DNA of 51,831 bases, the filler included, from Jimgerdemannia flammicorona (lineage: Eukaryota): assembly GCA_003990765.1 (NCBI GenBank). It is 2 parts of 2 records of this genome, joined end to end, with 100 filler letters (N's around TTAATTAATTAA, not from the genome) between each part and the next. Parts side by side here need not be neighbours in the genome. Positions count along the whole stretch, not along the records: positions 1 to 25,868 come from RBNJ01000780.1; positions 25,969 to 51,831 come from RBNJ01000781.1. The stretch is one strand, 5' to 3'. A model generated the notes under the pieces. That model was not told the origin of the DNA, did no database searches, and was given only the letters and a program-made list of their open reading frames with translations. This document shows positions 589-43,233 of the stretch, piece by piece; the stretch's first letter is position 1; each line of letters begins with the position of its first letter. A program made the translations under genes and the position numbers.

Positions 589-1101
589 TCAGTCATCATC
601 CCAATAGGCATAAGCAGCTTTTGCATCTATACCTGTTCCATCATCATCATCTGAGCTGTGTTCACTCCATTCTAGAGGCTCTTTTTCTTCCTCAGGAAAT
701 AGGGTCTCCACTTGGTGAATAATGCTAAGGTAGGTGGGCAGTGTCATCCTTTGGAGGTCATTCAGGGAAAACTGGGTCTGGATTAAGGCAGAAGGATTTT
801 GTTTATATATTGCATATAGTCTGTCTGCAGCAGTAGTGTTTTTTCTGTTCAGGCCAGTGGTGTTTCGGACATAGGCTAGGTCTGAGAGAGGAAGGTTCTG
901 CAATTGTTCTTCGATTGCATAATATGCCTGCAGCTGGTAGACCTGGAGTAGCCTCTCAGCCAAAGTGAGGTTCTCTTGATGAACTCGGATTCTCTGAAGA
1001 TAAGTTCCATTGAGTTCCTGGAACTGAGGCAGGGGAACTGGTAAGACTTAGAGGGAACTGAGAATAAGAGTTTGGAGGCAGTTGTTAATTCTCTGATTCA
1101 T
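589..1101 (-). pseudogene. Element A post-integrase accessory ORF (~170 aa, one internal TAA), HTH-like, unknown function
   Basis: ORF 589-963 extends in frame to an ATG at 1101 (MNQRINNCLQ...) through one TAA at ~1048-1050; aligns by eye with the C and E accessory ORFs. Confidence 0.75.
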
Positions 1102-1104
1102 GAT

Positions 1105-2164
1105 GTGAGAAGAAATATATCTTGAGGCAATTGATGTGTACTGGTATTCTCAGAGTTCATCCATCCATGCTTCTTAAATAGATGCTGGTTCCTCTGATGT
1201 TGTATACAAGATAAGATCCTTCCCATTTTGGTTCCAGTTTGGTGGCAAAGTTTGTCTCAATCATGCTTCTCCAAACTTGAACTTGATCTCCAATCTTGAT
1301 CTTCAGATCCTTCTATTTTTGGTTATAATACTTTTTTTGTCTTTCCTGGGCTTTGATAATCTGTCCTTGGGCTTGATTTCATAACTGTTCTGTCTTTTTG
1401 AGGAGGTCTCCAAGATTCTCATGGTCAGCAGTTCTGGTTCTCTTGGCAAACATCATTTCGAATGGCTTTTGTTTGGTGGATGTGGCAGGGGTGTTCTAAA
1501 TTTCCCATAGGATCTCAGGCAAGCAGAGGCCCCAATTAGTAGGGTTGACTCGGGCAAGTCCTTTCTTGATGGTCTGGTTCATTCTTTCTATCATGCCATT
1601 GGTCTGGGGGTGGTATGATGTGGTCCTCTTGAGGTGGATCTTGTGAATTCAGGCATAACTTGTGATTATATTATTGATGAATTCTGTGCCTCGGTCAGAG
1701 ATAAGTTCTTCTGGGGGTCCATATCTGAGTGTGAGTCCATGGAGGAGGCCTATAATAGTTAAGGCATCTGCGATTTCCATTGGGAAAGCCTCGGGCCACT
1801 TAGTCAGATGTTCTACAAATACAAGGATGTATTTGTTTCTTCTTGGTGTAACTGGTAGAGGTCCAATTACATCTACTCTCCATCTTTGAAAGATGTGGTC
1901 AGGTGGGGGAATCGGTTGCAGAGGGGCTTGATAGTTCTTCTTTCCTTGATACTTCTGGCAAATGTCACATTTCTGAATGATGTCTTGGACTTGGGTTCTG
2001 AGGTGGGGCCAATGTTGATATTGTTTTCGAATCTTGTCTTCTATGCATGTTTGTCCTTGGTGGGCTTTCTGATGTTCTTGCCCGATGAGATTTTCTTGTT
2101 CCTTGATGGTCTGAGGAGCTTCCTTTAGAGTGTGGTTCCTTGGGACACCCTTCTTCTGGTTCAT
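1105..2164 (-). pseudogene. Element A integrase (HHCC, DDE core, GPY/F-like tail, no chromodomain)
   Basis: H..H..CDIC; VDVIGPLP; LISDRGTEF; YHPQTNGMIERMN at ~1580-1620; KLEPKWEG tail. Confidence 0.93.
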
Positions 2165-2169
2165 TGTGG

Positions 2170-2600
2170 CTAGCGGGAAAGTACATCAACATTGTTGTGG
2201 GCTTTTCCTGCTTTGTGGATGATGGTGATTTTGTAATCCTGAAGGATAAGGATCCAGCGGGCTAGGATTCCAGCTAGTTCCTTGTGGTTAAATAGCCATT
2301 TGAGGGCTGCATGGTCTGTGATCAGAGTGAACCTTTTTCTGATGAGATAATGCTTGAATAGGGTGACCGCCCATATGACTGCAAGGCATTCCAGTTTGGT
2401 GCTGCCATAGTTCATCTGCTGCTGGTTGGTAGCTCTGCTTGTATAAGCTATCATATGGTGCTGTTGGCCAGGTCCTTCTTGGGCTAGAACTGCTCCTAGG
2501 CCATCTTTGGAAGCATCTGTATACAAGATGAATGGCTTCTGTAGATTGGGGCACACAAGGATTGGTGCTGTAGTCATGTGGTTCTTGAGTTCTCTGAAGG
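2170..2600 (-). pseudogene. Element A RNase H
   Basis: [39 protein letters not shown]. Confidence 0.95.
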
Positions 2601-2619
2601 CTTTTTTCTGTGATTCTGT

Positions 2620-3576
2620 CTATTTGAATGTCATTCCTTTCTTAAGAAGGATTTGGATTGGGGCAGCAATTTGGGCAAAATCCTTGATAAACCTTCTGTA
2701 GTAGGATACTAGCATCAGGAATGATAGTGTTTCTTTTGGAGTCTTGGGTACTGGCCAATTGTTGATCTTCTCAGTTTTCTTTGGATCTGCATGAGTTCCT
2801 TCTTTTGAGACTACAAATCCCCGGAATTCGAGTTTCTGTTTTCCAAAGTAGCATTTCTTTGAATTTAGTCTCAAGTGGTTCTTACAGGTGAGCTTGAAGA
2901 ATTCCTCTAGGTAGTGCAGGTGTTCTTCGAAATTTGATGAATAGATGTTGGAATCATCCATGTATACAATCAGACAGTAGTGGATCAAGGGGGCATAGAC
3001 TGAATTCATCATCCTCTGGAAGGTGGGGGGTGCATTGCAAAGTCCAAAGGGCATTCAGAGGTATTCAAACAGTTTTCCTAGAGCAAGAAAGGCTGTCTTT
3101 TGAATGTCCTTAGGATCCATGGGGATCTCATGGAATCCTGCAAAGAGGTCCATACTGCTGAAGTATCTGGCATCTTGTAACTGGTCCAAAAGGTCATCGA
3201 TTCTGGGCAAAGGATAAGCATCCTTTTCAGTGACTGAGTTGAGTTTTCTGTAATCCATGCAGAGTCTCCATCCTCCTTTCTTTGGTACAATAAGTATAGG
3301 GCTGGCCCAGGGGCTGGTAGAGGGTCGGATGACTCCATTGTCTAAGAGTTCTTGGATGTGCTCCTTTTCGAATGTTTTCAAGTGATGGGATATTCTATAA
3401 GGTTTCTGCTGGATGGGTGTTGCACTTCCTGTATTTATGCTGTGGTGATATAATGGATTGTATGGCAGGTTGCCATAATCAGTGGTGAAGATATCTTGAT
3501 ATTTGTTGAGAAGTTCTACTAGTTGTTGCTGTTGTTGAGGTGTCAATTCTTCTCCAATGTTGGTGGAAGGCTTCAC
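2620..3576 (-). pseudogene. Element A reverse transcriptase
   Basis: SPWASP, RLCMDYRKLN, YPLPRIDDL, MPFGLCNAP, YMDD; in-frame stops. Confidence 0.97.
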
Positions 3577-3619
3577 TGTCTCCTGGGTCGCAGAGGTGCC
3601 TTTCCTTTCTTCTGAGACC

Positions 3620-3926
3620 TTTTGCCATTTCCCAATAGGTTTAGTTCATAAACTTCCCTATGAGTTCGGTTGAGAAAAGGCACCAGATGTCCTATAATGG
3701 TTCCTTTTGACAGGATGATGATCTCCCAACTTTGGTTGGTTGCTCGGGAGTGTACTGGGTTCATCTTGTCAGGGAATGTGTGTCCCTCTATGTCCAGGTG
3801 TGGGATATCTTCCTTAGGTTCAAAAAAAAGGTTTCTGGGGTCGGGTGGTGCAAAGATTTCGAAGGTAGTTTGTTCTCCAGGTTCCAGGATGAGATTCTTG
3901 TGCAGTCTGACTGACTGCCAGTACAC
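3620..3926 (-). pseudogene. Element A second, degenerate dUTPase-like beta segment
   Basis: LILEPGEQ...ATNQS.EIIILSKGTIIGHL echoes the dUTPase scaffold but lacks catalytic motifs (inference). Confidence 0.45.
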
Positions 3927-3984
3927 TTGCTGGGGAACATTCTTCTTGAGATAATTGACTTGAAGGAGATGTACCTCCTTTCTG

Positions 3985-4375
3985 TCTGAACTTCCAAATC
4001 CCTTGGCTTGTCTTGTTCCTTCAGTTAGTTCAGAGACTTCCTGTAACTGTGGGGTCTTGACCTTAATGAAGACTGCTTGGGCAATCTTCTGTCCTCTGAT
4101 GATTCAGTACCATTCTGCACTGCTATTGTGTAGGATAACCTTGATTTTGCCTGTATATCCAGGGTCAATGGTTCCTCCTTCTACAGTTATCCCTTGTCTG
4201 GCAAGTCCAGACCTTGAGGTCAGTTGAATATAAGCTCCTTGAGGTGGCTGCATGGCTAATCTAGTTCTGACCATGAAGGTTTTTCCAGGCTTGATAGATT
4301 CATCCTCCAGGCTGTGAAGATCATATCCTACATCCTCTGGGTGAGCTTTGGTCGGGGGTTTGGCCTTGGGGTGCA
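3985..4375 (-). pseudogene. Element A trimeric dUTPase
   Basis: VGYDL, RSGLA, GTIDPGYTG; past one stop, KIAQ and RQAKGFGSS (motifs 1-5). Confidence 0.93.
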
Positions 4376-5700
4376 GCAGGGCATACTGGGCAATATCCTT
4401 ACTGAGTTCAGGTTTTCCTAAGGCTGAAGCTCCACTGGCAGAAAGCCTCCAAGCTCTAAGGTTGAGGTGTGGCCATCTGGCTCCAGTAGAGGAATCTCGG
4501 AGGTAATTGATTCCCCTTCTTTCTGTAGGGTCAAGGGCTTCCATGAAGTTGGTGGCATCTTCTGCCCATCCTTGGTGGGTTGCATGTCTGATGAGAGCTA
4601 GGATGTCTTCTCCCAAATCATAGATCTTGAGAGTTCTTTTTCCAGGCTTCTTGGTCTGGCTTCTTTGATTCTGACTTTTGCAAATCTGGCTTCGGTTATC
4701 TCCTTTCTTCAAGGTGTGCACTGCAACATCATGACTGAGATGAATCTTCTGATGTCTGCAGTCTCGGCAATCAGGGTGTCTCCCATGGTTGCAATATTCC
4801 ATTGCTCGGAAATGATGTTCCTGGCTATTTATCTCTTGTTGTCTTGGGAATCAGTACCCATCTTGATCATAGGTTGGGAGAAGGGTAGACAAGGGGTATA
4901 TTTCTGTTTGGGTAAAGAAGCCTTGTCCTCTAAATCGACTTTGTAACCTTGTGGTGACTTCCTGAAAGGTGGTAGACTGTGCAAGAGTAGTTGGGGGTTC
5001 TGGTCTCTGGGGTCTCTGTCTTTCTTGTTGGTCCAACAGATGACACTGATAGCAATAGTCTCGGGGAGAATGGAAGGCCATTTGATGTGGACATCTTCCT
5101 AGCTGGAAAGCTTTCTCTTGGTGGGTTTCTTTCTTGGAGATTATGGTGATAGTACTGGGTCCTTCCTCTGTGTTCCAGGGGTCATTGTCTTCAGGTGGTG
5201 TCCAGTGAGGGTCATCCCAGGGGATGAGTTCAGGGACTTCTTCTTCATCAGGCGCTTCTTGTTCAGGAACTTCTTGGTCAGAAGTTTCTTCTTCCTTGGA
5301 TGATTCTTGACCCCAAATTGCTTGTACTTCTGCAGCTTCGGTTGCAGGTGTTTTTGGAACATGTCTGCATTTCTTCTTCTTTCTTCTACATTCTGGGCAG
5401 GCTACACCAGGCGATTTCCTTGTTCCCATGATCTTGGAGGAATGCTTGGGACACTTGTGTCTCTTGAGGCATATGGGACATCCTTTGGCTTCTCCTGCAA
5501 TGGCTCCAATGGTGATGGGAATGGTGTTCTTGGCCCATACATTGTCTTCTGGTCTGTCATCCACCAGGTTAATTCAAGGATTGAGTCTGGGATCATTTCC
5601 ATCTTCAGATTCTTCTTCCTCCTCTGTAGTAGACTCCTCACTGCTGGTATATTCTTCTTGGATAGTGACCTTCTTCTTCTTCCTTGATTGCTCATAGCTG
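4376..5700 (-). pseudogene. Element A long Cys/His-rich, acidic PR-dUTPase spacer
   Basis: ORFs 4104-4802 and 4851-5564: CPICLKRHKC, CPECRRKKKKCRH, GRCPH..CYQC, CNH..CRDC. Confidence 0.7.
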
Positions 5701-6536
5701 GTCACCTTAACTCTATACTTCTTGCCTCAGTAGTCAAACTTGAGTACTTGTTGGCCGATATCAACAACTGCATTCATTTCCTTCATCCAGTTGGTGCCAA
5801 GAATCATGTCATAGGTGACAGCTTCAGTGACAACAGCTTTAGGGATGGAGAACTGAATGTGTCCAAGGGAAATGGTGATATTTCATACTTCTCCAAGGGG
5901 TTGAGTTCGGGCTCCATCTGCTACTATGATGCTGAGGTTAGATGGTCCATCAATGGGCCATTGGAGGGTGTCCAAGAATTGTTTGGCAATGATACAGATG
6001 GCTGCTCCTGTATCTATGAGGATTTTTGCTTTTTGTCCTCCAATGTCTCCATATAAGTAGGTGCTGATATGTCTTTCAGCTGCTTGAACAGGAATAGGAG
6101 CTGGTTCTTGCCGTGGGATTGGAACTTGGCCAGTGCTAGACCTTGTAGTTCTCAGCAATTTGTTTCGAACTCCAGCTGGTGTCAATTGCAAGAACTGCAG
6201 GAGAGGAGCTTCCATCTTGGCTTCTTGAATCTTCTGCCAGGCTTCATTGTAAATGCCTCTAGGCATAGTCTTTGGAGTGTACTTTTTCTTAGACTTTGGA
6301 GCAGCAGGTTCCTGTTCTTCTTGTTCTATTTCTTCATCTTCTGGTGGCAATTCATTTGTCTCAGGCATGAAGGGTGAGGGGGTTCGGGGAGGTGTTTCAA
6401 CTTGTTCCTCCTCATGCTCTTCATCTTCTTCTTGAATAATTCTTCTGCTGATATTCCTGGATGGTCTTCCCACAGGTCTCTTTCTTTTTTCTGCTGGGTA
6501 GACTGTCTTTTGGGTGGTAACCTTGGTAGGGTACAA
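5700..6536 (-). pseudogene. Element A aspartic protease and upstream acidic linker
   Basis: KILIDTGA motif, IVADG..PLGEV; YDMILG at ~5795-5812. Confidence 0.92.
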
Positions 6537-6639
6537 GTCTAGGTCACTGTAGTCTTCACTGTTGCTTGCTTCCTCGAAATCTTCAACAGGATGGGCTTCA
6601 GTCTTCTTGTACTGGGTGTCATTCCTTCAGTTTGGTGGT

Positions 6640-7573
6640 TCTGAGTCCCTTCGGTCACTTCTTTTATTGTCACATTCAGTGACATATGTCCGAATTATCC
6701 ACAGTGGAAGCATTGGACTTGGGCTCTGTCTTGGACAGGGTACCTTCTTTCTTCTTGCTGGTAATTCCTGTTATCTCTTGGTGGATAATCTTGGCTCCTC
6801 TGTGGTGGATATCCTCTGTTGTCTTGGTAGCTCTGATTTTCACATATAGTAAGTTTTTCAATCTGGCCAACCAATTGGTCTAACTTGGAGCTAAGATCTT
6901 GAATTTCACTTCTGTTCTTCTTTCCTTTCTTGGCTGGCCTCCTTTCTTCGGATCTTTCTTGTCCTTGAAGGAGTCCTTGCAGGGCCTTGACCAGGATATC
7001 TTCTTTATCTTCCTTTTTGTCATGATTGCTCCAGGTGGTTCCTTGCCTGATATCAAAGAATCCTTGGGCTGCATCTACTTGCTCTTCAGACCTTCTGATG
7101 CCTAGGGTGCAGACATACTGGGCAATATTTGGAGGAATTCCATTCATGAAGGTTATTGGTCCTATGATGTCTTGGTTGGTGGCATTGAATCCAGCAGAAT
7201 GCATTCTCTTCTGGATTCTTGTAAAGAAGGCTCTGAGTGATTCTCCAAGATTCATCTTCATTCCCATGATAGATTCCTGAGCCTTGTGGTGGGTTTCATT
7301 TCCTGCATACTTTTCAATGAGCCAATGGACCATGGCTTCATACTCTAGCTCATCGGAGAAGGCTGCTTGTATCTGTCTTGCCAGTTCTGAATCTGGGTTG
7401 TTTGCTGTTTGGTGGAAAATTCCTCTAGCTGGTTCTCTGAGCTGGGCTTTGTAGATGGCGATTTTTCTTTCATCTGAGAGGTTTCTCAAGGCTGCGATTC
7501 CTTCAATTCCATCAAGGAATTCTCTAGGGTCCTCCTCCAGGTATCCTGCAAAAGTTGGCAATGAGGTGGCCAT
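6640..7573 (-). pseudogene. Element A Gag (capsid plus zinc knuckle)
   Basis: LPTFAG..EDPREFL, GESLRAFFTR, CFHCG*FGH knuckle; the N-terminus may extend toward 8100. Confidence 0.88.
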
Positions 7574-8120
7574 TTCATCGTCACTTTCTTCTGATTCTGG
7601 TTCAGGTTCGGATTTGATTCTGATTCACTTTCTGAACTGTCACCAGAAACAGGGATGCTTGGATATCTTGAAGATGGTGTTCTGGTCCTTGGGTGAGGTG
7701 GGATAGGTCTGGGTATTCTTGTAGGAGCTACTTCTGGTTCTGCAAGGGGTTGTAGTAGGGGTTCTATTGGTGAGATTGCTGGGACTGGTATGGGGTGTCT
7801 GGCTGTAAAGTGTTGGGTCCAGGTAATAAGGTCTTCTAGTTCTTATGCAAGTTCTCCAAAAACTCTATCAGGGCTGCCTGTATTGTCTGGTTGATCTGGT
7901 TGATCTGGTTGGGGATTTTGGGCTGTACTGCCTCCTGCTTCTGGTTGGGATCCTTCTGATGCTAGGTAGTTGGTGAGTCTTGAGGTGATTACTTCTCTTC
8001 CTGTCCAAATGCTAGTGATGACTGGTTCTCCTGTAGTGGCAGAGGTTGGTGTTGTATCAAATGTATCCAGTTTGACTGTGGGTTCTTGTGAGCTGAAAAG
8101 TCACATCGATTTTGAAATCT

Positions 8121-8137
8121 TCCCAGTTGAGCCTCCA
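8121..8137 (-). promoter_or_regulatory. Element A primer-binding site TGGAGGCTCAACTGGGA (tRNA-Thr-like)
   Basis: Lies 2 nt after the LTR end (...TTACA), starts with TGG; the TGGAGGC-N4-CTGGGA pattern fits a eukaryotic tRNA-Thr 3' end from memory. Confidence 0.75.
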
Positions 8138-8139
8138 AA

Positions 8140-9629
8140 TGTAATGTGCCGGCTCAATGGAGGCAAATTACAAGGTTGGGGGTTGATGTAGTTTGGCTTG
8201 AGCCCCCAGTTACTTTGTCAAAAAGCAACAAAATGTTCTAAGATTTCTGAGGTCCTTGGTGTTTAGTGGTATAATAGTCAAAGCTGGATATCTGCAAGTG
8301 ATTTCCTTATTGGGATGGTTCTCTGGGTATAGTGGTGATTTGTGTGTCTTTCCCTTCTTGGGTCAACTGGGAATGGCAGAATTTTGTATGTAGCATGAGC
8401 AGTTTTCTTCTTGAGTGACGATCTCTGATTTCTGTATGACAATCTGGCAATTTAGAGGTTCTCCTTATGCGGTTTCTGTGTGACGATATCCGTGTAGCAT
8501 GATGATTTCCAAAAGTATGCGATTTCTGGTAGATAGCTTGATTTGGCTCACTGGGAATGTATGGCATGGGTTCTTCTCGGGCTCACTGGGAATGATGAAC
8601 AACTCGGATGGCTCTTCTGGGAATGCGGATAACTCGAAAGTGGCAGATGATGTGGATTTGGCGGGCTTCTTGAAAACGGTGGCTTAACTGGGAATTAACT
8701 TGGATAGCACAGACTCTTGCTGAATCAGTTTCAACTGGGAATACGGTGGATAACTCAAAAATGGCAGGTGACACGGATTCTTCCTAAATCAGCAGCTTTA
8801 ACTGGGAATACGATGGTGCAGATTCTTCTAAATCAGCGGCTTCAACTGGGAATACGATGGTGCAGATTCTTCCTGAATCGGCAGCTTCGACTGGAAAATG
8901 GGATGGCAGCTTGGAAAGGGTCTCTTGGCAAAGTTGCATCAAAGACTGGCTTCGTTTGCACGAACGGATCACTGCAAAGTTACATCAGAAACTGGCTTGA
9001 GCAAAGTGGTTTTCTAATGTGGATAACTTGGAAATGGCAGCTTATTTCTTAAGTGGTGGGTTACTCAAAGGCGGTGAAGTTCTCCTTGAACTTAGGCAGC
9101 AAATCTTCAGGCTTATCTGGCAAGTGAACCAAAAATGTAACAAACTCTTCTTTGTATCGGAAAGTGGACTGGAGTGGGAATAAGGGGACCAATTGCTCAA
9201 TCTTTAGAGGCTTCTTTGGTTTGCACTTCAATTCAGACTGAGGTTTATTCACTCTCGCCTCTGGGGTAATTTATACAAGTTGGTTGCTATCTGGTTACTA
9301 TGTGGCTAACTATAGATTTGCCATCTTTGGTAATGTTTGGGTGTGTCCTCTGGGTACAGGTGTGTCCATAGGACATGAGTGTGTCCGCAGGACATGAGTG
9401 TGTCCACAGGACATGAGTGTGTCTGCAGGACATGAGTGTGTCCACAGGACATGAGTGTGTCCTCAGGACACAGGTAAACAATCCTGATCTGGTGTCTTGG
9501 CTAATTATAAGTGTGGTGGGTATGAGTAACTATGATATACTGGAAGTCACATCATGCTGAGTAAGTATACTAATTGTTCATGTCATTTGGCTAAGTTATA
9601 ATTCAGATGGTATGTTTTGGTCTGTTACA
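8140..9629 (-). repeat. Element A 5' LTR (~1490 bp)
   Basis: TGTAA...TTACA termini, adjacent PBS, TATAAAT at ~9269-9275 and AATAAA at 9244-9249 on -. Confidence 0.85.
9341..9474. repeat. 19-bp tandem palindromic repeat GGACATGAGTGTGTCCNCA in U3 of A
   Basis: Five near-perfect units at 9371, 9390, 9409, 9428 and 9447, plus degenerate flanking units. Confidence 0.95.
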
Positions 9630-12600
9630 CTATTTATTTTTCTATTGGTATATCTTGATGACATCCTGATCTTTAGTGCAACTAAAGAAGAACACCTCAA
9701 ATACATTTGAATAGTCCTGGAGATCCTGTGAAAACACAAGCTTTATACTAAGCTTAAGAAGTATGAATTCTTCAAGGAATAAGTCAAATATCTTGGCCAT
9801 ATTATCTCTGTATAAGAAATTCAAGTAGACCCATATAAGATAGAAGCAATTGAAGAATAGCCTATTCTATTAAATCTCACAGAACTCTAATTCTTCCTTG
9901 GTCTAGCTGGCTACTATCATTGCTTTGTCAGAAACTTCTATAGTATTGCCAAGCCACTGACTAACCTCATAAGAAAGACCCTGTACTCAGACCACTATAT
10001 ACCCTATACTTGAGATCTCTTTTGTCAATAAGCTTTTCAAGAACTCAAGAACCATCTGACTCATGCTCCAGTTCTATATAATGCAGATCAAGACTTAAAA
10101 TTCATAGTCACTACTGATATATTGAATTTTGCCATTGGAGCAGTCTTGTCACAAGATGATGGCAAAGGATACTGTCTTATTGCTTTTGAGTCCTATAAGT
10201 TGGCCTCAGCTGAACAAAAGCTAGCCACTTATGAGAAGGAACTACTGGCAATAATACATACACTAGACTACTGGTAATGCTATCTAGAAGGTATTGAGTT
10301 TGATGTCATTACTGATCATTAATCTCTCAAGTACATTAACACTCAACCTACTCTATCACATCTACAAGCCAAATAAAGCCTCAAGCTTCAAACCTTCAAT
10401 CTGATAATCATCTACAAGCCTGGCAAGATACTTGTAGTATCAGATGTCTTATTAAGATGCTCTGACCTTGCCACAATTATACAAGTCATCTTGGTATCAG
10501 AATTTCTAAAGCAAATCAGATAAGCTTATAAAGAAGATATAGTTACCACTAGAGTTTTCTCAAATGAGCTCAAGAATATATATACTGTTGAGAACAACCT
10601 GATCTATCATCAAGACCAAGTCTACTTACCTAAAAACATGAATCTATACTATAAGATTTTGCAAGAACACTATGACTCTCCTCTTGCTGGTCATCTGGAA
10701 ATTAAGAAGACTGTCAAGAACATTCAATGCTGCTACTATTGGTCAATTATGGTCATAGAAATCAAGAACTATGATGCCAGCTGTAATCTATACCAGTATA
10801 ATAAGTCTACCAACCAAGCATCAGCTGGTTTGCTACAACCACTGCCAATTCCTACTAAGAAATTTAAGTAAGTTACCATAGACTTTGTAACTCAACTACC
10901 ATGAACCCAATCTGATACTGATGCTATCATCATATTCATTGACTGCCTGACCAAGACTATGGTTACTGAATCAACCACTACCAATATTACTATACCTGAG
11001 ATTGCAAGAATCTTCTTCAAGTCCATCTTCTATCACTATGGCCTACCATGAGTAATTGTCAGTGATTATAACCCCAAGTTCACCAGTTACTTCTGGCAAA
11101 CTCTCCTTAAGACCCTGGAAACCCAATTGGCTATATCTATCACCTTTTACCTACAAACTAATGGAAAAACTGAGCATATAAACAGAATTCTAGAACAAAT
11201 GCTTAGAAACTATATTTCTTATGAGCAAGATGACTAGAACCACTATTTGACTTATGTGTAGTTCACATACAACAATGCTATCCAATCATCTACTGGTCTT
11301 TCTTCTTTTCAGTTACTCCACAGTCAAGATCCCAAGACCTCTGCAAGTTTATTCTCTTTCAAGAAAAGTAGTCAAATACATGTCCCTACTGCTAAGAGCC
11401 TTATAGATAAAATGAACAAACTACTCAAGATTGTTTTCATGAATCTTCAGAAGACTCAACAGCATCACACCAAGTATGCTGATAAGAAATACTGTAATAT
11501 CACTTATACTGTTGGAGTTCAAGTCTTACTATCTACTGAGAATCTCAAAATATAATTTCAAGTCAACCACCCTTCAAACAAGTTTCAACTCAAGTATATT
11601 GGACCTTTTGAGATTACTGAACAAGTCTCTGCATCTTCCTATTACCTTAAGCTACCTGAAACCATAAGAGTATACCCAGTCTTTTATGTGTCATATCTCA
11701 AGATCTGAAACCAGTCACTACCCTACTCTGGTCGAATTTCTAAGCTGTAATTATTGAAGACCATATCAAGTATGAAGCTGAGAAAATTCTTGACAAACAA
11801 ATCTGCTACCACTGTCCTGAATACCTAGTTAAGTGGATGGGCTACCCTGAATATGATGCTACCTGGAAACCACTAGTTTACCTCAAGAACTCTCAAGATC
11901 TAGTTCAAGACTTTGAGGCAAAATATATTGTCTAATCTCTGTAGTGACTTCCTTGGATTGTTGATAACCTATAGTAATAACCAGTATCTTATACATCAGA
12001 AGTTTACTTTGGAACTCTAGAATCAGCAGAACATTTAATGAATAAGAAGTCTACTAAAATAAAGCTACTAGCTGAGTTCAAACCCCTCCCAGTTGATTAG
12101 TCTGATAATAGGCCCTCTGCCCTATATAAGGATAGCAAATCCTCATCATTACACTAATATAAGTTTGAGAAATTTTGGTTAAGTATATCTAGTCTTGTGT
12201 TACCTAAGAACTCAATAAGGATATTGGTTCTTAAGGAGAGAGAGATGTAACAATTTCACAGTTATATTTAGTCTTAGTATATTTTTGTATCTTTTAGTTA
12301 GTCTTTTCTTGTCATTTCTTAAATATTTTACTATATTCCACCACCTTCTACTTGCTTAGAAACCTTCTCTCAGTACTCAGATATTACTAAAACACTCTTG
12401 TCTTTTCTTGGTATCAAGTATCTTGTCTTAGCTAGTCATAGAACCTTTTGGAACATTGTAAAACAGTATTAGTCATCTTTGCTAAGAATCTATTTCTTAG
12501 CATTTCTCTTTCTTTTTAAGATCCTTCTGGATCTTTCATCTTTCTTTCAGATCCTATATAAATATCCTTATTCTCTCTCTGAATAAAGCTCAGAATATTT

Positions 12601-12716
12601 TCTCTCAGAAATCCTTCAAGAATACTTGAACCTCTAAGTATCTCTTTAAGCTACTTTAGGTCAACTAGAACTTTCAGATTTAGCTGCTTTCTCTTAAAGA
12701 AACTAGAACCATTACA
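9630..12716 (+). mobile_element. Element B: 3' part of a decayed chromodomain Ty3/Gypsy element (RT C-term, RH, INT, chromodomain, PPT, 3' LTR); same family as D
   Basis: YLDDILIFS at ~9650; HYDSPLAGH; EYLVKWMGYPEYDATW at ~11815-11865; colinear with D 20290-23300. Confidence 0.93.
12246..12716 (+). repeat. Element B 3' LTR
   Basis: TGTAACA...ATTACA after the PPT AAGGAGAGAGAGA; similar to the D LTRs. Confidence 0.9.
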
Positions 12717-12877
12717 TCTTTCTTTTTTATATTATATATATATATATATATACTTTATTCTTTCAAACAAAGCTTTAAATATTTTTTCTTAAAAAGGGTT
12801 TAAAAACTATTTAGATTACTAGTACTTTCTAAAATATAGTTACTTTTTCTTATAAAAATTAAAATTATTATATATTC

Positions 12878-12908
<31 letters not shown>

Positions 12909-13349
12909 TTTTATATTAGTTAAAATATAGAATTGATTAAAACTATTAAAATTATTACTATTTTTATTATCTTAACTAGATCTTTATATATTTTTAAATT
13001 AATATAAATTTCAAAATTAATTATAATTTTATTTTACTAGTTATTAGTAATTAAATATATATATTACTATACTTATAATAACTTTAAATATAAATATAAT
13101 ATAAAAAAACTTTAATTTAATTATATATAATTTCTTATTTTTCTACAAATATTAAATCTATTTATAAATCTATTTTATTTAATTAGTATATTATTACTCT
13201 AGTTACTAATAAATTAAAGTTTTTTATTATTATATTAATAAAATTAAGAATTCTATTTTTTTAATTTATTTATAACTTGAGCAATTATATAAAATTCTAT
13301 TATTTAATTTACTATTTCATATATATTAATATTTACTATATATACATAT
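12717..13349. other. Extremely AT-rich decayed sequence with (TA)n and (AAT)n microsatellites
   Basis: Almost no G/C; no recoverable motif. Confidence 0.8.
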
Positions 13350-14880: not shown

Positions 14881-15299
14881 TCTTTCTCCTAAATAAGGAT
14901 CTTCTTTTGAACATTCTTATTCATTGATCTAGTCTGAAAAATTTGCTGATCCCATAATCTCTAGCAGAGGGTCAAAAAGTAGTATTTATGGGCTGGTATC
15001 TTTCTTATATATTTTGATATAATGTTGAAGAGTTGCTCTCTTTATATAGAGCAAGGGCCTGATTCTGATCTTAACCAATCAGTTGATAGTTCAAACTTCT
15101 CTGACTTCAAAAGTCTCATAGATGAGTAGTTACTAGTACTATATCTCTTAGAGAATGGTCCAGACAGATTGTCTGCTGGTCATAGGATATGCTGTTATGA
15201 TTTACAGATTAGAACCTCATGGATGGTCATCATATTTTACTTCTTTTATATAGATTCATAGTATTTTTTGAGTCTGTTCCTATATATTATGGTAGGTAG

Positions 15300-17293: not shown

Positions 17294-17298
17294 TTTAC

Positions 17299-24198: not shown

Positions 24199-24201
24199 AA
24201 T

Positions 24202-32604: not shown

Positions 32605-33600
32605 ATAAGGATATATGTGATGAGACTATTAATAAAGGTAAGTGAGATATATTGAGGAATATAGTCAGAGTTTTAGAAGTATATAAAAGACTACTTTGAC
32701 TCTATATTTATTTCAGCTATTCCCCCTCTCTCTTGTATAGTATTATAACTATTTGTTATTTTTATCTACTAGTGTTTTTAATAAATATATAAAGAAAATA
32801 GTCAAACAAGTTACCCCAATAGTAAGCTTTGCAATTCCAGTATATAATCTCTTAATTGATCAACTAGAGAATAAGTTAGAGAATAGTGATAAATTCTAAC
32901 TGAGTCTGGTTCAGAGATATGCTATAGAGGTTATCTTAAGCTTAGAAAATACTACTCTAAACAGATATCATCATTTTCTTAATTAGTACTAATAAGCCAG
33001 CATTGTTACTCTTTCTTTCTTAAAAAACTCTCTGCCAAACTCACTCTCTTTATATAATATTGAATTTATGTTTAAAAATTTAAATCTATAAAGATTAGAG
33101 CTGAGAGTAGTAGTATATTGAAGAAGCAAAGCAGGCTATAATTAAAACATATCAGAAGAACTATATACTACCAGAAGGTTCTGGCTAAAGTCTGGTCAAA
33201 TATACTAAAGAACCTCTTTTATTATATATTTACCTAATCAATAGACAAATTAACTATTTATCTAATCAGTAACTAGATAATTCTGCTAAAGAGTATAGAG
33301 ATATTCAACTAATAGAAGGTGAGTTATCTTTCTATGGATAGTTGGTGAGATTAGGCTGATAATCTTTAACTACTATCTATCTTAGAAGTATATAGTTACA
33401 GATATGATAAATGGACAAGCATCTCTCTCCAGTACCATTCAGGTTACACAACCTTTAGAAAGCACTTATAACATCATTTATTAGAGAAAGTGACTAGCAA
33501 CATAGTGACTGATCAGTAATCTGAGGTGCATACTGAGCAGGGTGGCCTAAGTGCATTCAACTGGCAGTATGTGGGGTGAGGCCCTAGGCTGGGGGGAGGT

Positions 33601-35524
33601 ATGAGGGAGCTGCTGGCAGGAGGATGTAGTAGAGGAGGGGGCAGTAGTGGAGGACCAGGGTCTGGGAGAGTGAGCTTCGCGGAGATGGTGAAGGGGAGAC
33701 AGCAGGCATCTGGGCTGGAGGGATGGCTGAGGAGAGGCAAGAAGGTGGGGAAGATGGCAGCACAGGAGAGAGTAGTCCTTAGTGGTAGGGGTGATAGAGC
33801 TAGGAGTATAGTGGCTGAGAGAAGTATGATGACTGATGGAGACAGAACTGCCAATCTGGAAAAAAATCCATTATGACTGCTGATGGTGTGGCTGAGCAGC
33901 AGGGGCTTGGAAGATCAGGGGATTTGGCAGATGGTGTAATAGGCCTGGCAGTGGCACCATTACTCAAGAAATTGATCTTGGTGTTTGCAGTTACTCTGTG
34001 CTTCTGGGGCCTAGTGGTGATAGCAAAAATGGTGCTGAGACTCATTACTAAACAGGTGGCTGAAGCAGTGTCTGTAAAGTTTTTGAAGGGATTGGAGAGA
34101 GTAGAGGTGGGATTTGAGGAGGCTGAGCCTTTGGAGGAGACACTGAAGGTAGAATTGATAGTTGGGAAGGTGTGTGTCCCAATAACATGCTGTCTGAGGT
34201 GGAATCTCTGAGTGGTACAACTATTAGTAAAAGGGGTACTTATAGTGATGGCAGCAGAGATGAGAAGGAGAGTTGAAGAGGTTATGGCAGAGTATGGTAA
34301 TGTAGTGGACATCAGCTTTAGAGTGTGGGAAGAGACCTCGCTCAGGACTAGAGATGTTGATGTGAGAATTTGGCTGACAGGGAAGAAAGCTACCAGGAAG
34401 GTGAGAGACTGGCCCTCAGTGATGATCTGGGGAGCAATCCTGTGCAAGGTGACGAGAGTGAAGAGAAGTGAGGAGGAGGAAGAGGACTTGTTGGAAGCAC
34501 TGAAAGAGCTGAGTGATATGGTGGAGTAGAGGGCAAAGGCTTGGAAGATATTTGTGGAGTCCATTTGCCAGGAGGTGGTGGATAGAAAGTGGATCTGAGT
34601 AGACAAGAGATAGTGGGAACAGACTCAGGAGTATAAGAGACAGAAGGAACTGCTGGTGAAGCTGGAGGGGAGATCACAGAAGAATGCAGGCAGGATGGTG
34701 GAGACAGCAGATGCTAAAGCAAGTGTCTGGGCCAGCAAGGGTGGTGGGAGTGCTAAGAAGGAGTCTGGAGAGGACAGAGAGGTGATGGGCAATGACCCCT
34801 ATGCTGATGGTATATTTGAGATCTGGGAGGAGGATGGGGAAGTCTCACCTACCTCTACCCTACTTATCAGATGTGGTCTAGCTTCATGAAGCAGGATGGA
34901 GGAGAATGTGCCTATGTGGGGGTCCAGTGAGTTCAATTTGGAGTTCCTGAGGTAGTGGATGGGGGACAAGGGGTTGCAGTTGGAGAGGAGGAACTGGTGG
35001 ACATCTCTGAGGTGTGGGATGAGTCTGTAAGTACTGAAGCTGATACCACAATGCTGGATAGAGGGAGGCCAGCGACTCCTGGAGGGAAGGAGGTGGGGAA
35101 CCTACTTTGGATGTATTGGATAATAAATAACCTAGTGGCTGATAAGTTGGGGGAGGTGGACTTGAGAGTTATGAGTGATGAGCATTAGGTGAGGATCCTG
35201 CAGGGGGATGGAGTGATGTTGGTATTGAAGGCAGAAATTCTTGCCATATACTTGGGGGAGGAAGGGTATGAGATGGATGAGGAGTGGGAGATAGAACTGG
35301 CAGGCATTGCTGGTGAGAGGACTGAATACTACTGGACCAAGCATCATGGATTGCAGCTCTGGCAGGAGGCCTGCCTGGAGTATCAGGAAGAGTTTGAGGA
35401 GAAGGCAGATGGGAAGATGAATGAGTTGCTGGCTGGATTGGAGGCTCAGAGGGCTGAGGAGGAAGTGGTGACTGTGGAACATAATCTGGACTTGGCACAG
35501 GAAGAGAGGGATATAGAGCAGTAG
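33601..35524 (+). pseudogene. LINE copy 2 ORF1
   Basis: Chain of + fragments before the endonuclease; SFAEMVK motif; RRM-like EEVMAEYGNVVDISFR; acidic coiled-coil tail. Confidence 0.7.
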
Positions 35525-35555
35525 AAATGGACTGGATAATATATCATATTTCACT

Positions 35556-38500
35556 ATGAATAGTATAACCAACATTTTTTCTTTAAATATGAATGGGCTG
35601 AGGAGTACCTTTCAATGTAGAAACATTTTTACTTGGCTGAAGGGATTGGAGGCCAATCTCTTCCTATTGCAGGATATTTGGTATGAAGATGATTTGGATA
35701 GGCTAGATTGGACAAAGAAATGGGGAGGAAAGGCAGTTTGGAAGGGCAAGATGGGAATTCTGGTTCAGAAAGGCAGAGGGAAGATATGGGACATGAGGAG
35801 CTGGGGGAATAGACTGATCTAGAGAGAATAGATATGTATAGGTTGGGAGCCAGTCATGGTGGGCTCTTGTTATTGTCCCATTATACAGGGTGAGCATGTG
35901 GATTGGGTGTGGGGTCTCTAGGAGAGTGGGGTTCTTGCAGAAGCTGGAGTGGATGTGCTTGGTAGAGATTTCAATATGGTCCAGAATATGTGGTTGGATA
36001 GAATGGATGGTGGCCAGGGAGCTGAGACTAAGAGTGGAGGGCTGGTGGTTTGGGAGGAAGTAGAAAGGCTTAGTACTTTGGTAGATGCAGGTAGGAAGTA
36101 CTGGGGAGATAGGAGAGTATACACACATTGGACAGAGGGTCTGGAGACAAGGATAGACTAGATTCTGATAGCTAGCTACTGGGGTTTCAATGTCTGGAAG
36201 TCACTGGAGGTGGAATGGTGTCCATGGTCAGATCATTGGGGGCTGTTAGGACAAGGTCATTTCAGGGGGAGTGGGGATGGGTCTGGACATTGGCACCTTA
36301 ATACCTCTTTACTAGATAATTAGATATAGTGGGATGAGTGGGCTGAAGACATATAACTGAGGGTGACAAACTGGAGACAGGAAGGTGTCCCTGTTGGTAT
36401 TTGGTAGATGAGGCTGAAAGAGAGGGCAAGGGTCTACTGGAGTGAGGCTGGCAAGGAGGTGGGGAAGCAGAGGAGGTGATAAGTGAGATGGGCCACTGGT
36501 AGGCTGTCTAGACTCTTAGAGGATTGGGCAGGCCTTGCAATATCAGTGGGAGGTGAGAACTGGAGGTTGAGGAGGGCTAAATTAGAAGTTGGTAAATTGC
36601 AACAGATATTGTGGGAAGAGGAGGAGGCCAGGGTACAGAGCTTGGCAGTGCGACTTCATTGGCAGGGTTTAGAGGAAGGGGAGAGGCCCTTGAAGTATCT
36701 CACAAGGGCCCTTCAGGTGAGAAGGGTGCAGCAATGATAGGAGGGAGTGATTGACTCCAATGGTATACTGGTACATAGTATACAAGACATTCTTGGATTG
36801 CTTAAGAAGTAGTGGAGTGAATTGTGGAGTGAGGAGGAGGGTGGAGCAGACCCTGATACCATTGATCAGACATTGGAGAATTGGCACCCCCCACAAGTGG
36901 ATGGGCTGGAGGACTTGGTGTGGCCAGTGCAAGAAGAAGAGATCTGCCAGGTTCTTGCAGCAACAATGCTGGGTACTATATCTGGGGAGGACAGTCTGCC
37001 CTGAGACTTCTGGAAGAAAATGGTGAGAGTTCCTAGAATACTGGGTGAGATGACAGCACTGTATAACTTTATCCTACAGACAGAGAGATGGGTAGGAGAG
37101 CAGGATCTGGGGCTGGTGATACTGCTTTATAAGAACAAAGGAAGGAGAGAGGACTGGAAGAACTGGTGGCTGATTATGCTACTGGATATGGACAGAAAAT
37201 TGATTATGAAGGTGGTTGTCATGAGGCTACAGAAGGTGGCCCAGCAAGTTTTAGGTGATGAGCAGAGGGGCTTTATAGGCAGCCAGCTCATTAGGGATGG
37301 CATGGCCTGGGTGCATGGAGTTATCAAAAAGGCACAAGCTTGTGGACTGGATGGAAGACTAGTCTTCTTGGATCAGGAGAAGGCTTATGACTGGGTGCAG
37401 CAAGTCTGGCTAGTAAAAGTATTAGACAGAACTGGAGTTCCACACCAGTTCCAGTTGGCAATGATCAGCCTATTGGAAGGGAGTAGGGCTGCACTCATTT
37501 GTAATGAACATAGAGGGGTATCATTCCCCCTGGGAAGGGGTGTTCCACAGAGAGACCCACTGTCCTCCATTCTGTATGCTCTTTCACTAGAACTCCTTGT
37601 GGATAAAATCCAGAGGAAGATAGAAGAGCTCACCATCTTTGGAATTGGGTGGAAAGTTGGAGCCTTTGCAGATGATATGATGGTTGGCCTAGAATCTATT
37701 ACTGATATTGAAGAGCTAAAGAAGACAGTGGAGTGGTATGAGATGAACTCAGGGGTCAAACTCAACTGACATAAGTGTGAGACAATGGTATTGGGTAATG
37801 GCCTGGTGGGGGGAGACATTATTGGAACTATTGTTCCTACTGGCGAGGCAGTATGGTACCTGGGCATTTACCTGTCAGTATATGGATCAGTACTTTCTAG
37901 GAACAGCGAATAGAAGTCTGGGGGGAGGCCCTGCAGAGCTGGGGAGGTTGCTATTTGTCTCTGGCAAGGCATATCTCAGTCTTGAATGTCTATTGGCTGC
38001 TGAAGTTGTGGTACCTGGCATAACATTTGGACTTTTCAGCCTGGGTGATAAAGAGACTATTGAAGCTGGCCAAAGGGTGGATCTGGGCTGGGAGAAGAAG
38101 TCAAATCAGTTGGAAGATCTTATCCTTACTAGTGGAAAGAGGAGGTCTTGGACTGGTTGACTTCCCGAAGAGGTTACATTATCTGAGAGCATAGTGGTTG
38201 AAGAGAGTGATGGAGCTGAGAGGGGGCAGTTGGGTTCTACTCTTGCAGAAAGTTTAGGAGTTGAGGTCTTTTCCAAGAGGCTTGACAGAAGATCTCCTAT
38301 CATTAATTGGGCTTCAGAACATTGCCCAATTATGCTATAAAGATTTCTGATAGGGTGTAGTAGAAGGGGCACACTATATTGGAATTCATTGGTAAGAAAA
38401 TGAAGGAGAAGAGGCTTGGGACCCAGCAATATGGAGATGAGATCGAGTGTTGCTGGGAGGTGTGCCCTTATTCGAGTTTGACATTGGTGATGAGATAGAT

Positions 38501-39200
38501 TGCCAACAAGGACCAGGCCAGGATCTGTGGCCTAGCGAATGGCAGGGGGTGGATATTGGAGAGGAGTGGGACTGGCATGGCATTTGAGCATGGAGTGCTG
38601 AGGTGCAGAAGTGGATGCCACTGAAGTACTGGGTGATCTGGTGGCATATGTTGAGGAGAAATGTCATGCTCAACTTCTGTTTGGGCCACCTTGTTGAGGG
38701 GGGTTGTTTTGACTATGAGGAGTGCCACAATATAGGGCAGATTAGGGGATATGTGTAGATACCTAAATATTGGCTAGGAGAGTGCAAGATACTTAGTGAC
38801 TTTTGGAGAGCTGTTGGGGATTATTTGAGAGTAGCTTATAGGAGACATGGTATATGGGACAGGTGGGAGGACTTGAGAGACAGACTGGTGGTGGGGGTGG
38901 GAAAGGAGTAGCTCACATTAGGTTGGGTTTTGGCAATTTGGGTGGGGTTGGCAGGTTACTGGTTGTTTGTTTTTAAAGGTAGGAGGTGACAGAGCCTGGA
39001 GGATCAGCTGCTGTGCTGGTATAGACTTATGGAAGACACTCTGACAGGCTGGTGGCTTGGTTGGAGATTGCAGAGTAGGTGAAAGTATTGCTTGGTAGAG
39101 AAGATTTGTGGGCAGAGTGGGGGTAGGGTGAGAGTGATAGGTACAAAGGTGACTTTTATTGATAATATTGTAGGGAGAGGTTCTCCCATGGGGATTGGGT
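35556..39200 (+). pseudogene. LINE copy 2 ORF2 (APE endonuclease, RT, C-terminal Cys/His)
   Basis: SLNMNGL, DFN, TRID, SDH; DQEKAYD, GVPQRDPLS, AFADD. Confidence 0.94.
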
Positions 39201-40789: not shown

Positions 40790-41150
40790 GGTCTATAACT
40801 CTTTACTTGTTATAAAGAGTAATCCCAAGCAGCTAGAAGAAAAAAAAGAAAAATTAGTAGAAAGAGTATGTAGAATTTATAATTCTTTGACTACTATAAA
40901 GAGTAACTCTAAGTAGTCAGAAGATAAAAAGAAGAATCAGCAGAGGAAGTATACAGAATTTACAGCTCTCTGCCTATTGTAAAGAGTAATCTCAAATAGC
41001 TAGAAGGTAAAAAGAAGAATCAGCAGAGAGAGCATACAGAATTTATGGCTCTCTGCCTACTATATAGAGTAATTCTAAGCAGCCAGAAGGTAAAAAAGGA
41101 GAATTGGCAGCCCTATTATCTATTGTAAGAAGCAGCTTCAAGTAGTTAGA
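40790..41150. repeat. ~83-bp tandem repeat, ~4 copies, with a related block at ~39585-39720
   Basis: AAGAGTAA..C.AAG.AG..AGAAG.TAAAAAGAAGAAT units starting ~40811, 40895, 40978, 41061. Confidence 0.88.
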
Positions 41151-42279
41151 ATCTGGTATAGTTTCAGATCTCATGAGTATTCTGGTCTTGTACAGAAGTA
41201 CTATATCAGTAGCATTCTATAGTAGGATCAAGAGATCAGTAGGACTTAGCAAGAAGGCTAAACTAATATTAAAAAAAATACATCCAAACTACTTATCTCT
41301 TATAAAACTGCTCTACTTACTATTTTTAAGCTATAATAAGTCTATTATCTATTATAAGTATGACAATAGCTATATCTGAGCTCTCTTAAAAGATAGTGAT
41401 ACTATGAAGATTATGTGGCTAAAATAAGACTACTGTATTGATCACAAATGATATCCTGAAGCTATAAGTGAGATTATATCAGATATTTCTACTGCTCTCA
41501 CAAGTGGGGTTCTTTTTTTCCAGAATATAGAATATTACTGGAGTAATATTATTATATATATATATAAATATAGAAATATTATATCTAATATAACTCAATA
41601 GAATATGAGTATATAGTTATATAAACTCTTGGTCCAGAATCTTATACTGCCAGATAGTACTGGAGGAGATTTGTCTTTTATTAAGTCTCAGGAGCTCTGG
41701 CTTGGATATCTGCCAAAACAGATTAGTATCTGATCAATTCTTTTATTCTATAAGTAACTCTCTCTCTCTATCATATAAATAGTCAAGTACTTATCTCATA
41801 CAGTATACTAAATTGTACTAAGAATATATATATATATAGCCATACTGAGAGTATTATCAAACTGGTCTACTGTTTACTCTAGTAATCTACTTAAAGATTT
41901 TCAGATCATAGCTGCTATTATTATATAGGTCATATCATACTTACTATAATATAGCAGATATATAACTAGAAAAATATAGCAGATTTCTATAACTCTTCTT
42001 GACTCCTCAGAGTTATAAGTAGTATCTGTCTGATCTTATTATCAGACTATCAGGATGAGGCTCAAACTCTTTTGATCTGAGGTTTATTCACTCTAGATAC
42101 TGGGATATTTATATAAGTTTACTAGCTATAAGATGGCTAAGTTATATCTATATTTCCTATAAGTTACTTTTTATAAGTATAGATCCTCTATATCTGTAAA
42201 ATCTTTATGATTGTGAAGATTTTATATCTATGAAATCTCTATATTTGTAAAATGACTACTATTTATAAGACTATATTAT

Positions 42280-42734
42280 TGTAATGTAGCAGATGCTAAA
42301 ATGGGCAAGTACATCAGATTTCTTTATCTTGAATTCTTGTCTTCTTGACTCCCAGAGTCAGTAGTTCCTTAAGGCCAAATGTGTTTAAGAGGTAATTCTG
42401 AAGGTCCTTTTATTGGTATACTTGTTCTTTTTCTAACACTTTTGATCTGAGGTTTATTCACTTGAAGATACTGGGTTATTTATACAAGTTTGCTAGCTAT
42501 GAGATGGCTTCTGAGTTATGTGGCTAAGTTATGAGTTATTTAGACAATATCTAGAAATTTAGACAATGTTGAAATACTATACTAAATCAGGGTATTCGAT
42601 TTGGACAATGTCTAGAAATTTAGACAATGTCGAAATTGGTGACTGCTAACTATAAAGCTATACTACTTTGGGAATAGGTGCTATCAAGTGTCTATTCCCT
42701 ATTTCCTTCTTCCTAATTCAGCTATACTGTCACA
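42280..42734 (-). repeat. Element E 3' LTR (455 bp)
   Basis: Direct repeat of 48442-48837 with an extra ~60-bp internal duplication. Confidence 0.96.
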
Positions 42735-42771
42735 ACTTCCTCCTGAATAGATGGTCTCATCCCTGAGGCAT

Positions 42772-43233
42772 CTATTCAAACTCCCAGGCTTCAACCATCT
42801 GTATGATCTTATACTGTGCAATTTGCTGCATGACTGTTTCCCAATGATGTCTTCTTACTTTCTCGAAGTTGGTAGGGGTTACTTCTCTCAGGTAGTCTAT
42901 TGCTGGTTCATCTTCTCAGAATAACTTGTGGATCCTTTTGGCAATAGTGATCTGTGAGTGGGAGAGCTGACACTTGGCAATCCAGTCCTCTTTGGTCTTT
43001 GCTGGATCCTGATTGAGCACCTGCTCAAGCTTGAAGTACTCTTGGAATTCTGCCTGATACTGATAGGCTCTAAAGTGTGAGATCTGAGAGAGATGAGTCT
43101 GCACAATACTCTGAATATCCTCATAGTATGCCTCTATGGTCAGAGGCTCAGTGGTGTGCCATTGTCTTTCGATGGCTCTTTGGGCAGCACTAGTGATCTT
43201 GAGTACCATCGTGGTGCTTCGGTTATTGGCCAT
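42772..43233 (-). pseudogene. Element E post-integrase accessory ORF (153 aa, one internal TGA), HTH-like
   Basis: ORF 42916-43233 continues in frame EDEPAIDYLREVTPTNFEKV...WEFE* to 42772. Confidence 0.78.

Follow-up and report, generated by a model that had tools for sequence, protein, structure and literature searches.

The window analysed here, the whole of a 51.8 kb stretch of DNA from Jimgerdemannia flammicorona (assembly GCA_003990765.1), is a nest of decayed retrotransposons with long terminal repeats (LTRs) accompanied by AT-rich stretches, and our subject is an additional open reading frame (ORF), designated ORF3, which is found in three of its Ty3/Gypsy elements (A, C and E). ORF3 occupies a frame distinct from those of gag and pol, is unrelated to both, and has its own start codon. 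The map of the window was obtained by a Pfam scan of 138 stop-to-stop frames of at least 75 codons, together with comparison of the window with itself. An earlier inspection of the DNA without database searches, hereafter the sequence-only reading, had picked out three peptides by eye, and all of them exist as quoted: one is ORF-A of element A, one is ORF-E of element E and one lies in both LTRs of element C, all on the minus strand.

Element A extends over approximately 549–8140 on the minus strand and carries gag, protease, dUTPase, reverse transcriptase (RT), RNase H and integrase; its decayed gag-pol region occupies 1102–7842, in which Pfam assigned protease, dUTPase (3576–4850), RT, RNase H and integrase (1652–2185, with a C-terminal part reaching to about 1102). 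ORF-A (589–1101, minus strand) is 171 codons long, is interrupted at codon 18 by a single in-frame TAA (1048–1050), and overlaps the integrase by 17 nt (1085–1101) in the +1 frame. The 3′ LTR presumably starts within 540–560 on the minus strand, where a G-rich tract is followed by TGTAACAG at 549, about 40 nt past the stop of ORF-A; this start was assigned by analogy with the LTR starts of element E (TGTGACAG) and element C (TGTAATAG). Since this LTR extends beyond the start of the window it is unpaired, and no 5′ LTR of element A was found in the self-comparison of the window. Element E (42279–48837, minus strand) has the LTR pair, primer-binding site, polypurine tract and domain order of a Gypsy element: its 3′ LTR (42279–42734) is about 90% identical to its 5′ LTR (48441–48837), the primer-binding site is at 48438–48422, and the decayed gag-pol region (43234–48200) contains protease (46649–47068), dUTPase (45905–46273), RT (44798–45232) and integrase, which extends to 43234. 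ORF-E (42772–43233, minus strand) spans 153 codons and is likewise broken once, by an in-frame TGA at codon 106; it overlaps pol by 11 nt (43223–43233) in the +1 frame with its ATG in the context ACCATGG. The polypurine tract AGGAGGAAG (42736–42744, minus strand) stands directly before the 3′ LTR.

The metagenome scan for relatives of these ORFs returned one locus, L001, a contig of 6479 bp with a near-intact element of the E type. One frame of 1281 codons (774–4619) encodes gag with a CCHC motif, protease, dUTPase, RT and RNase H, and is followed by the integrase, by ORF3 at 5795–6256, and then by the same polypurine tract motif as in element E and the start of the LTR; the leader and the primer-binding site align with those of element E. 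ORF3 of L001 overlaps the pol stop by 44 nt, and its ATG again has the context ACCATGG. In A, E and L001, therefore, the ATG of ORF3 is in the +1 frame of pol within the last codons of the integrase, and the alignment places it in one and the same column for every subfamily. Upstream of this ATG the ORF3 frame stays open over 13–16 codons, and the ORF3 stop lies about 30–40 nt ahead of the polypurine tract or 3′ LTR in E and L001, as it probably does in A, judging from the LTR start assigned above. The first 37 residues of one metagenomic relative, P0023, match the other-frame translation of the 3′ end of the element A integrase, so this protein has the same neighbour gene. Inspection by eye of the leaders of E and L001 and of the region before the ATG found no convincing splice donor or acceptor motifs.

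Element C, which is E-like, differs in that its family member is downstream of the polypurine tract and inside the LTR. The 5′ LTR (24202–25706, minus strand) runs from TGTAATAG to ACA and is separated by three bases from the primer-binding site (24198–24182), which is common to C and E; the 3′ LTR (13350–14880, minus strand) starts with the same sequence and is directly preceded by the polypurine tract (14890–14881). The two LTRs form a repeat pair of 1.5 kb with 85% identity, and the statement of the sequence-only reading that the C peptide had been reconstructed from two LTRs was thus literally right. Copy 2, in the 5′ LTR, has its core at 25262–25014 and a possible ATG at 25627, and copy 1, in the 3′ LTR, is more decayed, with its core at about 14415–14263 and a possible ATG at 14769; both are on the minus strand and both contain many stops and frame changes. 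With a family-like ORF inside its LTR, the element C provirus bears a family member twice. The internal region of element C also has a +1-frame ATG at the equivalent place (15259), with an overlap of 14 nt, and the segment from this ATG to the polypurine tract (14891–15259, minus strand) may be a decayed E-type ORF3; a by-eye match of this segment to the E-type ORF was dropped, the family profiles giving E-values of 0.13–1.1. The proposed linkage of the ORFs to Gypsy 3′ ends is supported, with one difference from the sequence-only reading: in A and E the ORF comes just after the integrase, and in C it is within the LTR and outside the internal region. All ORF3 copies in the window are dead, and they sit in elements full of transition-type decay.

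Relatives of the three peptides were found among metagenome records, where all of them are unnamed or annotated as "hypothetical protein"; viral contigs scanned with the A and E alignments contained none. The relatives of ORF-A designated P0001, P0002 and P0014 are intact proteins of 171–172 amino acids that start and end as ORF-A does, P0001 and P0002 being 66% identical to it. Those of ORF-E designated P0005, P0016 and P0020 are intact proteins of 153 amino acids with 66–76% identity by BLASTP or tblastn, and several further relatives of ORF-E are truncated by contig ends. In a MAFFT alignment the A and E families are collinear from the initiator methionine to the acidic, tryptophan-containing C-terminus, and the register in which hhalign superposes them (A 56–110 on E 62–116) is the same as that of the sequence-only reading. 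A profile of A and E combined had 17 matches at an E-value of 0.001 or better among 1.84 billion representative proteins, and these included about ten far more distant proteins of 150–220 amino acids with the same core motif. From ten distant relatives alone, without any A, E or C sequence, we built a profile designated A4. Compared by hhalign, A4 matched the A family with a probability of 97.5% (E = 6e-12) and the E family with 99.0% (E = 6e-18). In a six-frame hmmsearch of the whole window it recovered E with an i-Evalue of 1.4e-17, A with 1.8e-11 (1095–676) and copy 2 of C with 1.5e-5, the next best match having 0.72. The three loci picked by eye are exactly those found by this outside profile, and the significant profile similarity predicted among them was thereby obtained. 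The accompanying claim that the protein pattern is kept while the nucleotide sequences look unrelated was also borne out, in that the blastn alignment between E and C spans pol and stops exactly at the start of ORF-E (43231). As judged from these sequence profiles, the A, E and C peptides are members of one previously unnamed protein family.

The near-intact copy in L001 permits selection on the frame to be estimated. ORF-E and the ORF3 of L001 are both 462 nt long and align without any insertion or deletion at 67% nucleotide identity, and their 151 differences are distributed as 34, 29 and 88 over codon positions 1, 2 and 3 (chi-square p = 5.8e-10). This excess at the third codon position indicates purifying selection on the ORF3 frame. 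The proportions of nonsynonymous and synonymous differences were pN = 0.20 and pS = 0.79, the latter saturated, so that the past selection suspected by the sequence-only reading is supported by this one pair. As to the other parts of the element, E and L001 share 74% of their amino acids in gag, 83% in the protease–RT part, 74–83% in integrase and 66% in ORF3, and A and L001 share 44% in RT–RNase H and 33–37% in integrase, with gag and ORF3 below detection by BLAST. On the basis of these identities, ORF3 appears to be a fast-evolving resident gene that has diverged together with its element, and no recent capture. An origin as a duplicate of gag or integrase was ruled out, hhalign finding no kinship of ORF3 to either (probability 0.2%).

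The ORF3 protein has about 150–220 residues, is soluble as judged from the lack of any hydrophobic segment, and is predicted to be all-helical. Its conserved core is E-x-Q-x-Y-Y-x-I-G, followed by a loop of variable length and by L-[ST]-R-R-x3-I-A-x-R-[IV]-Y-x-L-F-x3-P-x-A-L-x2-L-x-G-x2-P-x-D-[FI]. The isoelectric point is below 7 in 11 of 15 members, and the C-terminal stretch is usually acidic and often contains W, F or Y (e.g., ...EAWEFE and ...YPYWDDD). In two members, P0030 and P0034, the N-terminus is extended by a basic stretch containing an R-G-R-P / K-R-G-R motif, which we take to resemble an AT-hook. The membrane threshold of the Kyte–Doolittle scale is about 1.6, and the maximum of the 19-residue window was 1.14 or less in all 15 members, in agreement with the earlier view that there is no signal peptide or transmembrane anchor; identity as a retroviral or errantiviral envelope protein was rejected on the same ground. 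The family gave nothing significant against Pfam, NCBIfam, PHROGs and the PDB sequences, and the statement that it matches no characterised family therefore stands for these four collections. The best PDB sequence match of the family profile was spectrin with an E-value of 0.26. AlphaFold2 on shallow alignments gave mean pLDDT values of 52.6 and 44.1, and fold searches by Foldseek and VIA with these low-confidence models returned background only. The nearest structures to the ESM Atlas model of P0001 (pTM 0.68) were long hairpins of helices, HisKA and HAMP among them, with TM-scores of 0.37 or less; a feature search in the same atlas gave unnamed clusters only, and A and E shared the first of these, which we regard simply as a lead.

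Taking these results together, we consider it probable that the peptides are copies of a third gene of a Ty3/Gypsy lineage that has the order gag–protease–dUTPase–RT–RNase H–integrase–ORF3 and lacks a chromodomain; it appears highly probable that these elements have in ORF3 a genuine accessory gene family under selection. The protein would be made separately from pol, a view based on the ATG, whose column in the alignment is the same throughout the subfamilies. Two routes to such a product may be proposed. Overlapping stop and start arrangements drive coupled termination–reinitiation in several RNA viruses, fungal ones included, and ORF3 might likewise be translated by stop-restart at the pol stop. 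Alternatively, a subgenomic or spliced RNA could serve, as is described for CERV of Cer1 (PMC10309623). With regard to function, we tentatively favor an element-specific nuclear cofactor or adaptor acting in trans, in which the helical core would be the binding part, for a partner or for nucleic acid, and the acidic and aromatic tail would recruit a host factor; such an adaptor might serve transcription of the element, or might guide integration in place of the missing chromodomain. Any single biochemical role proposed from the sequences is, however it is chosen, unlikely to be the correct one. The most extended form of the proposal, in which an ancient ORF3 would be a standing component of the whole chromodomain-less, dUTPase-bearing Gypsy lineage of soil fungi, translated by stop-restart, acting as a trans-acting nuclear adaptor for the element's own LTR or for integration tethering, and moved into the U3 region of the LTR in one sublineage, is improbable as a whole.

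A more specific function had been put forward in the sequence-only reading, namely that ORF3 is a helix-turn-helix (HTH) transactivator or anti-silencing factor, in which the L-S-R-R...I-A-x-R-I-Y-x-L-F helix would bind the LTR and the acidic tail would activate transcription. In favor of this idea, a short helix and, past a turn, a long and conserved one are predicted at E residues 81–87 and 92–106; the near-invariant arginine (R100 in P0005 numbering) in the R-R...R motif of the long helix, the acidic-aromatic C-terminal tails and the basic N-terminal stretch of P0030 and P0034 would also suit it. Two weak leads point in the same direction: a TetR-type HTH regulator was seventh among the ten PDB matches listed (E = 0.67), and an ESM Atlas cluster of rank 21 has HTH_3 on 15% of its members. 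Profile searches, however, gave no support, with no HTH family matched in 12 members by Pfam at E-values up to 1 and no match of any kind among 19 members in NCBIfam and PHROGs. No HTH fold stood out in the Foldseek or VIA results, and the structures nearest to the P0001 model are the hairpins named above. In addition, nowhere in the family are variation and indels greater than in the stretch that should form helix 2, ahead of the proposed recognition helix, and most members are acidic overall. The HTH fold thus found no confirmation, and we consider this function doubtful.

According to another explanation, ORF3 is a C-terminal extension of the integrase, joined to it by +1 ribosomal frameshifting in the overlap and working as an integration-targeting module that replaces the chromodomain. 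Yeast Ty elements use +1 frameshifting, and the +1 position of ORF3 relative to pol recurs in A, E, L001 and at the corresponding site of C. The ORF3 frame is open upstream of the ATG over the 13–16 codons mentioned above; furthermore, these elements are without the chromodomain that the neighboring chromoviruses fuse to their integrase. A product made only by fusion, however, would need no ATG, and the ATG is kept at the same column in every subfamily and in the strong context ACCATGG in E and L001. Moreover, no frameshift signal was identified, and longer relatives of ORF-A that would represent a fusion were looked for and did not turn up, though their absence weighs little. We judge this explanation to be unlikely, although it still competes with that of a separate product. 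Equally unlikely in our estimation is a role as an RNA-handling factor, which would act in nuclear export or packaging of unspliced RNA, as Rev or CERV does, or as a suppressor of RNA silencing: the position and size of ORF3 match those of the small regulatory genes of complex retroelements, but the proteins are mostly acidic and have no similarity to any known family in Pfam or among the PDB sequences. Finally, chance similarity or remnants without a role in the element, left for instance from a captured piece of host DNA, which might be suspected from the broken state of all window copies, the blank pairwise BLASTP and the mere 17 relatives among the 1.84 billion representatives, are very improbable and largely refuted by the third-codon-position excess and by the specific recovery of the three loci with an independent profile, and also disagree with the length, start and stop kept across copies 60–76% identical and with the placement relative to the integrase stop and polypurine tract, which is kept though RT is 44% identical.

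Several points nevertheless weigh against regarding ORF3 as a third gene of this lineage. The direct comparison between A and E is weak: BLASTP of ORF-A against ORF-E gave no similarity (E about 1), and hhalign of the A family (three sequences) against the E family (nine) gave a probability of 41.7% and an E-value of 2.7e-4. The E-values obtained with A4 are somewhat optimistic because the distant set was picked with the combined A and E profile. Copy 1 of C (i-Evalues of 0.095 to 4) and the internal segment of C score below significance. The selection estimate comes from a single pair, ORF-E and L001, of which one member is a dead copy, and it concerns the E subfamily and not that of A. Linkage to retrotransposons has been seen for the A and E subfamilies and for C only, the genomic context of the ten distant relatives being outside this view. 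The low confidence of the structure models precludes a fold-based inference on function, and ORF3 is known here from its sequence alone, its product being a predicted one.

We also describe the other residents of the window. A chromovirus on the plus strand (17299–23303), with 407-bp LTRs that are 95.6% identical, is inserted in the RT region of element C and splits this element into two pieces on the minus strand (15257–17303 and 23299–23944). A second, partial chromovirus copy occupies 9635–12717. Pfam assigned Chromo domains to both copies, at 11744–11926 (E = 3e-12) in the partial one and at 22377–22574 (E = 5e-8) at the end of the integrase of the nested one, and no Chromo domain to the integrase tails of A and E or to ORF3; conversely, the chromovirus copies gave no ORF3-family match in the six-frame scan with A4. 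Only about 260 nt (23944–24201, minus strand) lie between the primer-binding site and the RT fragment of element C, with gag, protease and dUTPase missing, and element C is therefore regarded as an internally deleted copy. The region also shows a direct duplication of about 5.3 kb (9635–14880 and 20276–25706) composed of the 3′ part of the chromovirus, a spacer and the 1.5 kb LTR of C; its parts are 69–85% identical, the spacer at 12717–13350 being too AT-rich for comparison. From this duplication, element C may sit in a tandem LTR–internal–LTR array formed after the nesting. A dUTPase is present in pol of three Gypsy families of the window and of L001 (3576–4850 and 45905–46273 on the minus strand, 18409–19020 on the plus strand, and residues 648–775 of the 774–4619 frame of L001); it is placed between protease and RT in A, E and L001, and upstream of protease in the plus-strand chromovirus. 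A further element lies at about 33500–38800, with RT on the plus strand (37005–37766) and a very high GC skew (0.4–0.5), and has a diverged partial copy at 26191–28124; the A4 scan found no ORF3-family match in either.

Repeats and base composition of the window were recorded as well. Positions 1–280, which are probably within the 3′ LTR of element A, consist of tandem 9-nt units whose minus strand reads as a G-X-Y repeat, and the resulting match to Pfam Collagen (E = 1.9e-8) is most likely a repeat artefact; the LTR of L001 likewise opens with a short tandem repeat, of 18-nt units (about 6400–6479). Tandem repeats of about 83 nt (40794–41121) and about 340 nt (50501–51532) are located in AT-rich spacers between elements, and GC content falls to 24–31% in blocks at 12–14, 24–26, 29–32, 39–42 and 48–51 kb. 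When the 300–2300 part of element A was compared with related contigs from four sequencing runs, two of which were of soil metagenomes, the differences were mostly transitions (A>G, G>A, C>T and T>C); these contigs were related fragments with no informative joint across ORF3. The transitions and the low-GC blocks would fit a transition-type decay of repeats, as in RIP or in deamination of methylated DNA.

Accessory genes are known in other retroelements, and among retroviruses the sag gene of MMTV and the nef gene of HIV lie in, or run into, the U3 region of the LTR. The ORF of element C is likewise downstream of the polypurine tract and present in both LTRs, with no homology to these genes, whereas in A, E and L001 ORF3 precedes the polypurine tract and is not part of the LTR. 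In plants, LTR retrotransposons, for example those of the Retand/Tat/Ogre type with an extended stretch separating pol from the 3′ LTR, carry additional ORFs (aORFs; PMC7264820 and PMC11963269). What these share with ORF3 is an extra ORF, of mostly unknown function, between pol and the 3′ LTR of Gypsy elements that are not chromoviruses. They differ in sequence, no relationship being detected, and in form, ORF3 being short, starting in the +1 frame within integrase codons and ending before the polypurine tract; their hosts are plants, whereas the host of ORF3 is apparently soil fungus-like, its fungal nature being suggested by published dUTPase-bearing Gypsy elements of fungi (PMC2864245) and by the transition-type decay. 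Elements of bdelloid rotifers are also reported to have additional ORFs in the interval from pol to the 3′ LTR (PMC5408684). As for fungi, a figure legend of Novikova et al. (2010; PMC2864245) marks an "add. ORF" of unknown function in some Gypsy elements, and dUTPase domains of fungal Gypsy elements are described in the same source. Like ours, such elements have a dUTPase placed between protease and RT, and some contain an extra ORF that is unexplained; the elements surveyed there, in contrast to those with ORF3, are mainly chromoviruses, and the comparison with the "add. ORF" is one of description only. The brtn gene of the Boty-like elements of Botrytis cinerea (PMC8365987, citing Zhao et al., 2011) is also an extra gene in a fungal Gypsy element, but it is antisense, whereas ORF3 is on the sense strand directly after the integrase. 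CERV of Caenorhabditis elegans Cer1 is reported to be an extra protein encoded by a spliced mRNA and needed for export of the genomic RNA (PMC10309623). It resembles the role favored for ORF3 in being a small regulatory protein that is encoded by the element outside gag-pol, is nuclear and serves the element; CERV differs in being made from a spliced mRNA and in depending on phosphorylation, characters to which the sequences examined here supply no counterpart. No description of the ORF3 protein family was found in the collection of open-access papers searched. An additional ORF after pol and ahead of the 3′ LTR is thus a feature already known, and what is new is the protein family, the +1-frame start within the end of the integrase and, in one lineage, the location of the gene inside the LTR.

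Extra genes such as env, regulators and export factors turn simple LTR retrotransposons into "complex" ones, and fungal examples of this have barely been described. The profile of the family lets annotators recognise ORF3 in proteins that are now unnamed or labelled as hypothetical. ORF3 is a candidate for element-encoded regulation or integration targeting in fungi and for coupled stop-restart translation in a retrotransposon, and element C is a candidate for the move of a coding gene into an LTR. If the adaptor proposal is true, these elements would possess a regulator gene and count among the "complex" retrotransposons, a level of organisation known so far chiefly from vertebrate retroviruses and from a few animal and plant elements, and a separate protein would do what chromoviruses do with a fused chromodomain.

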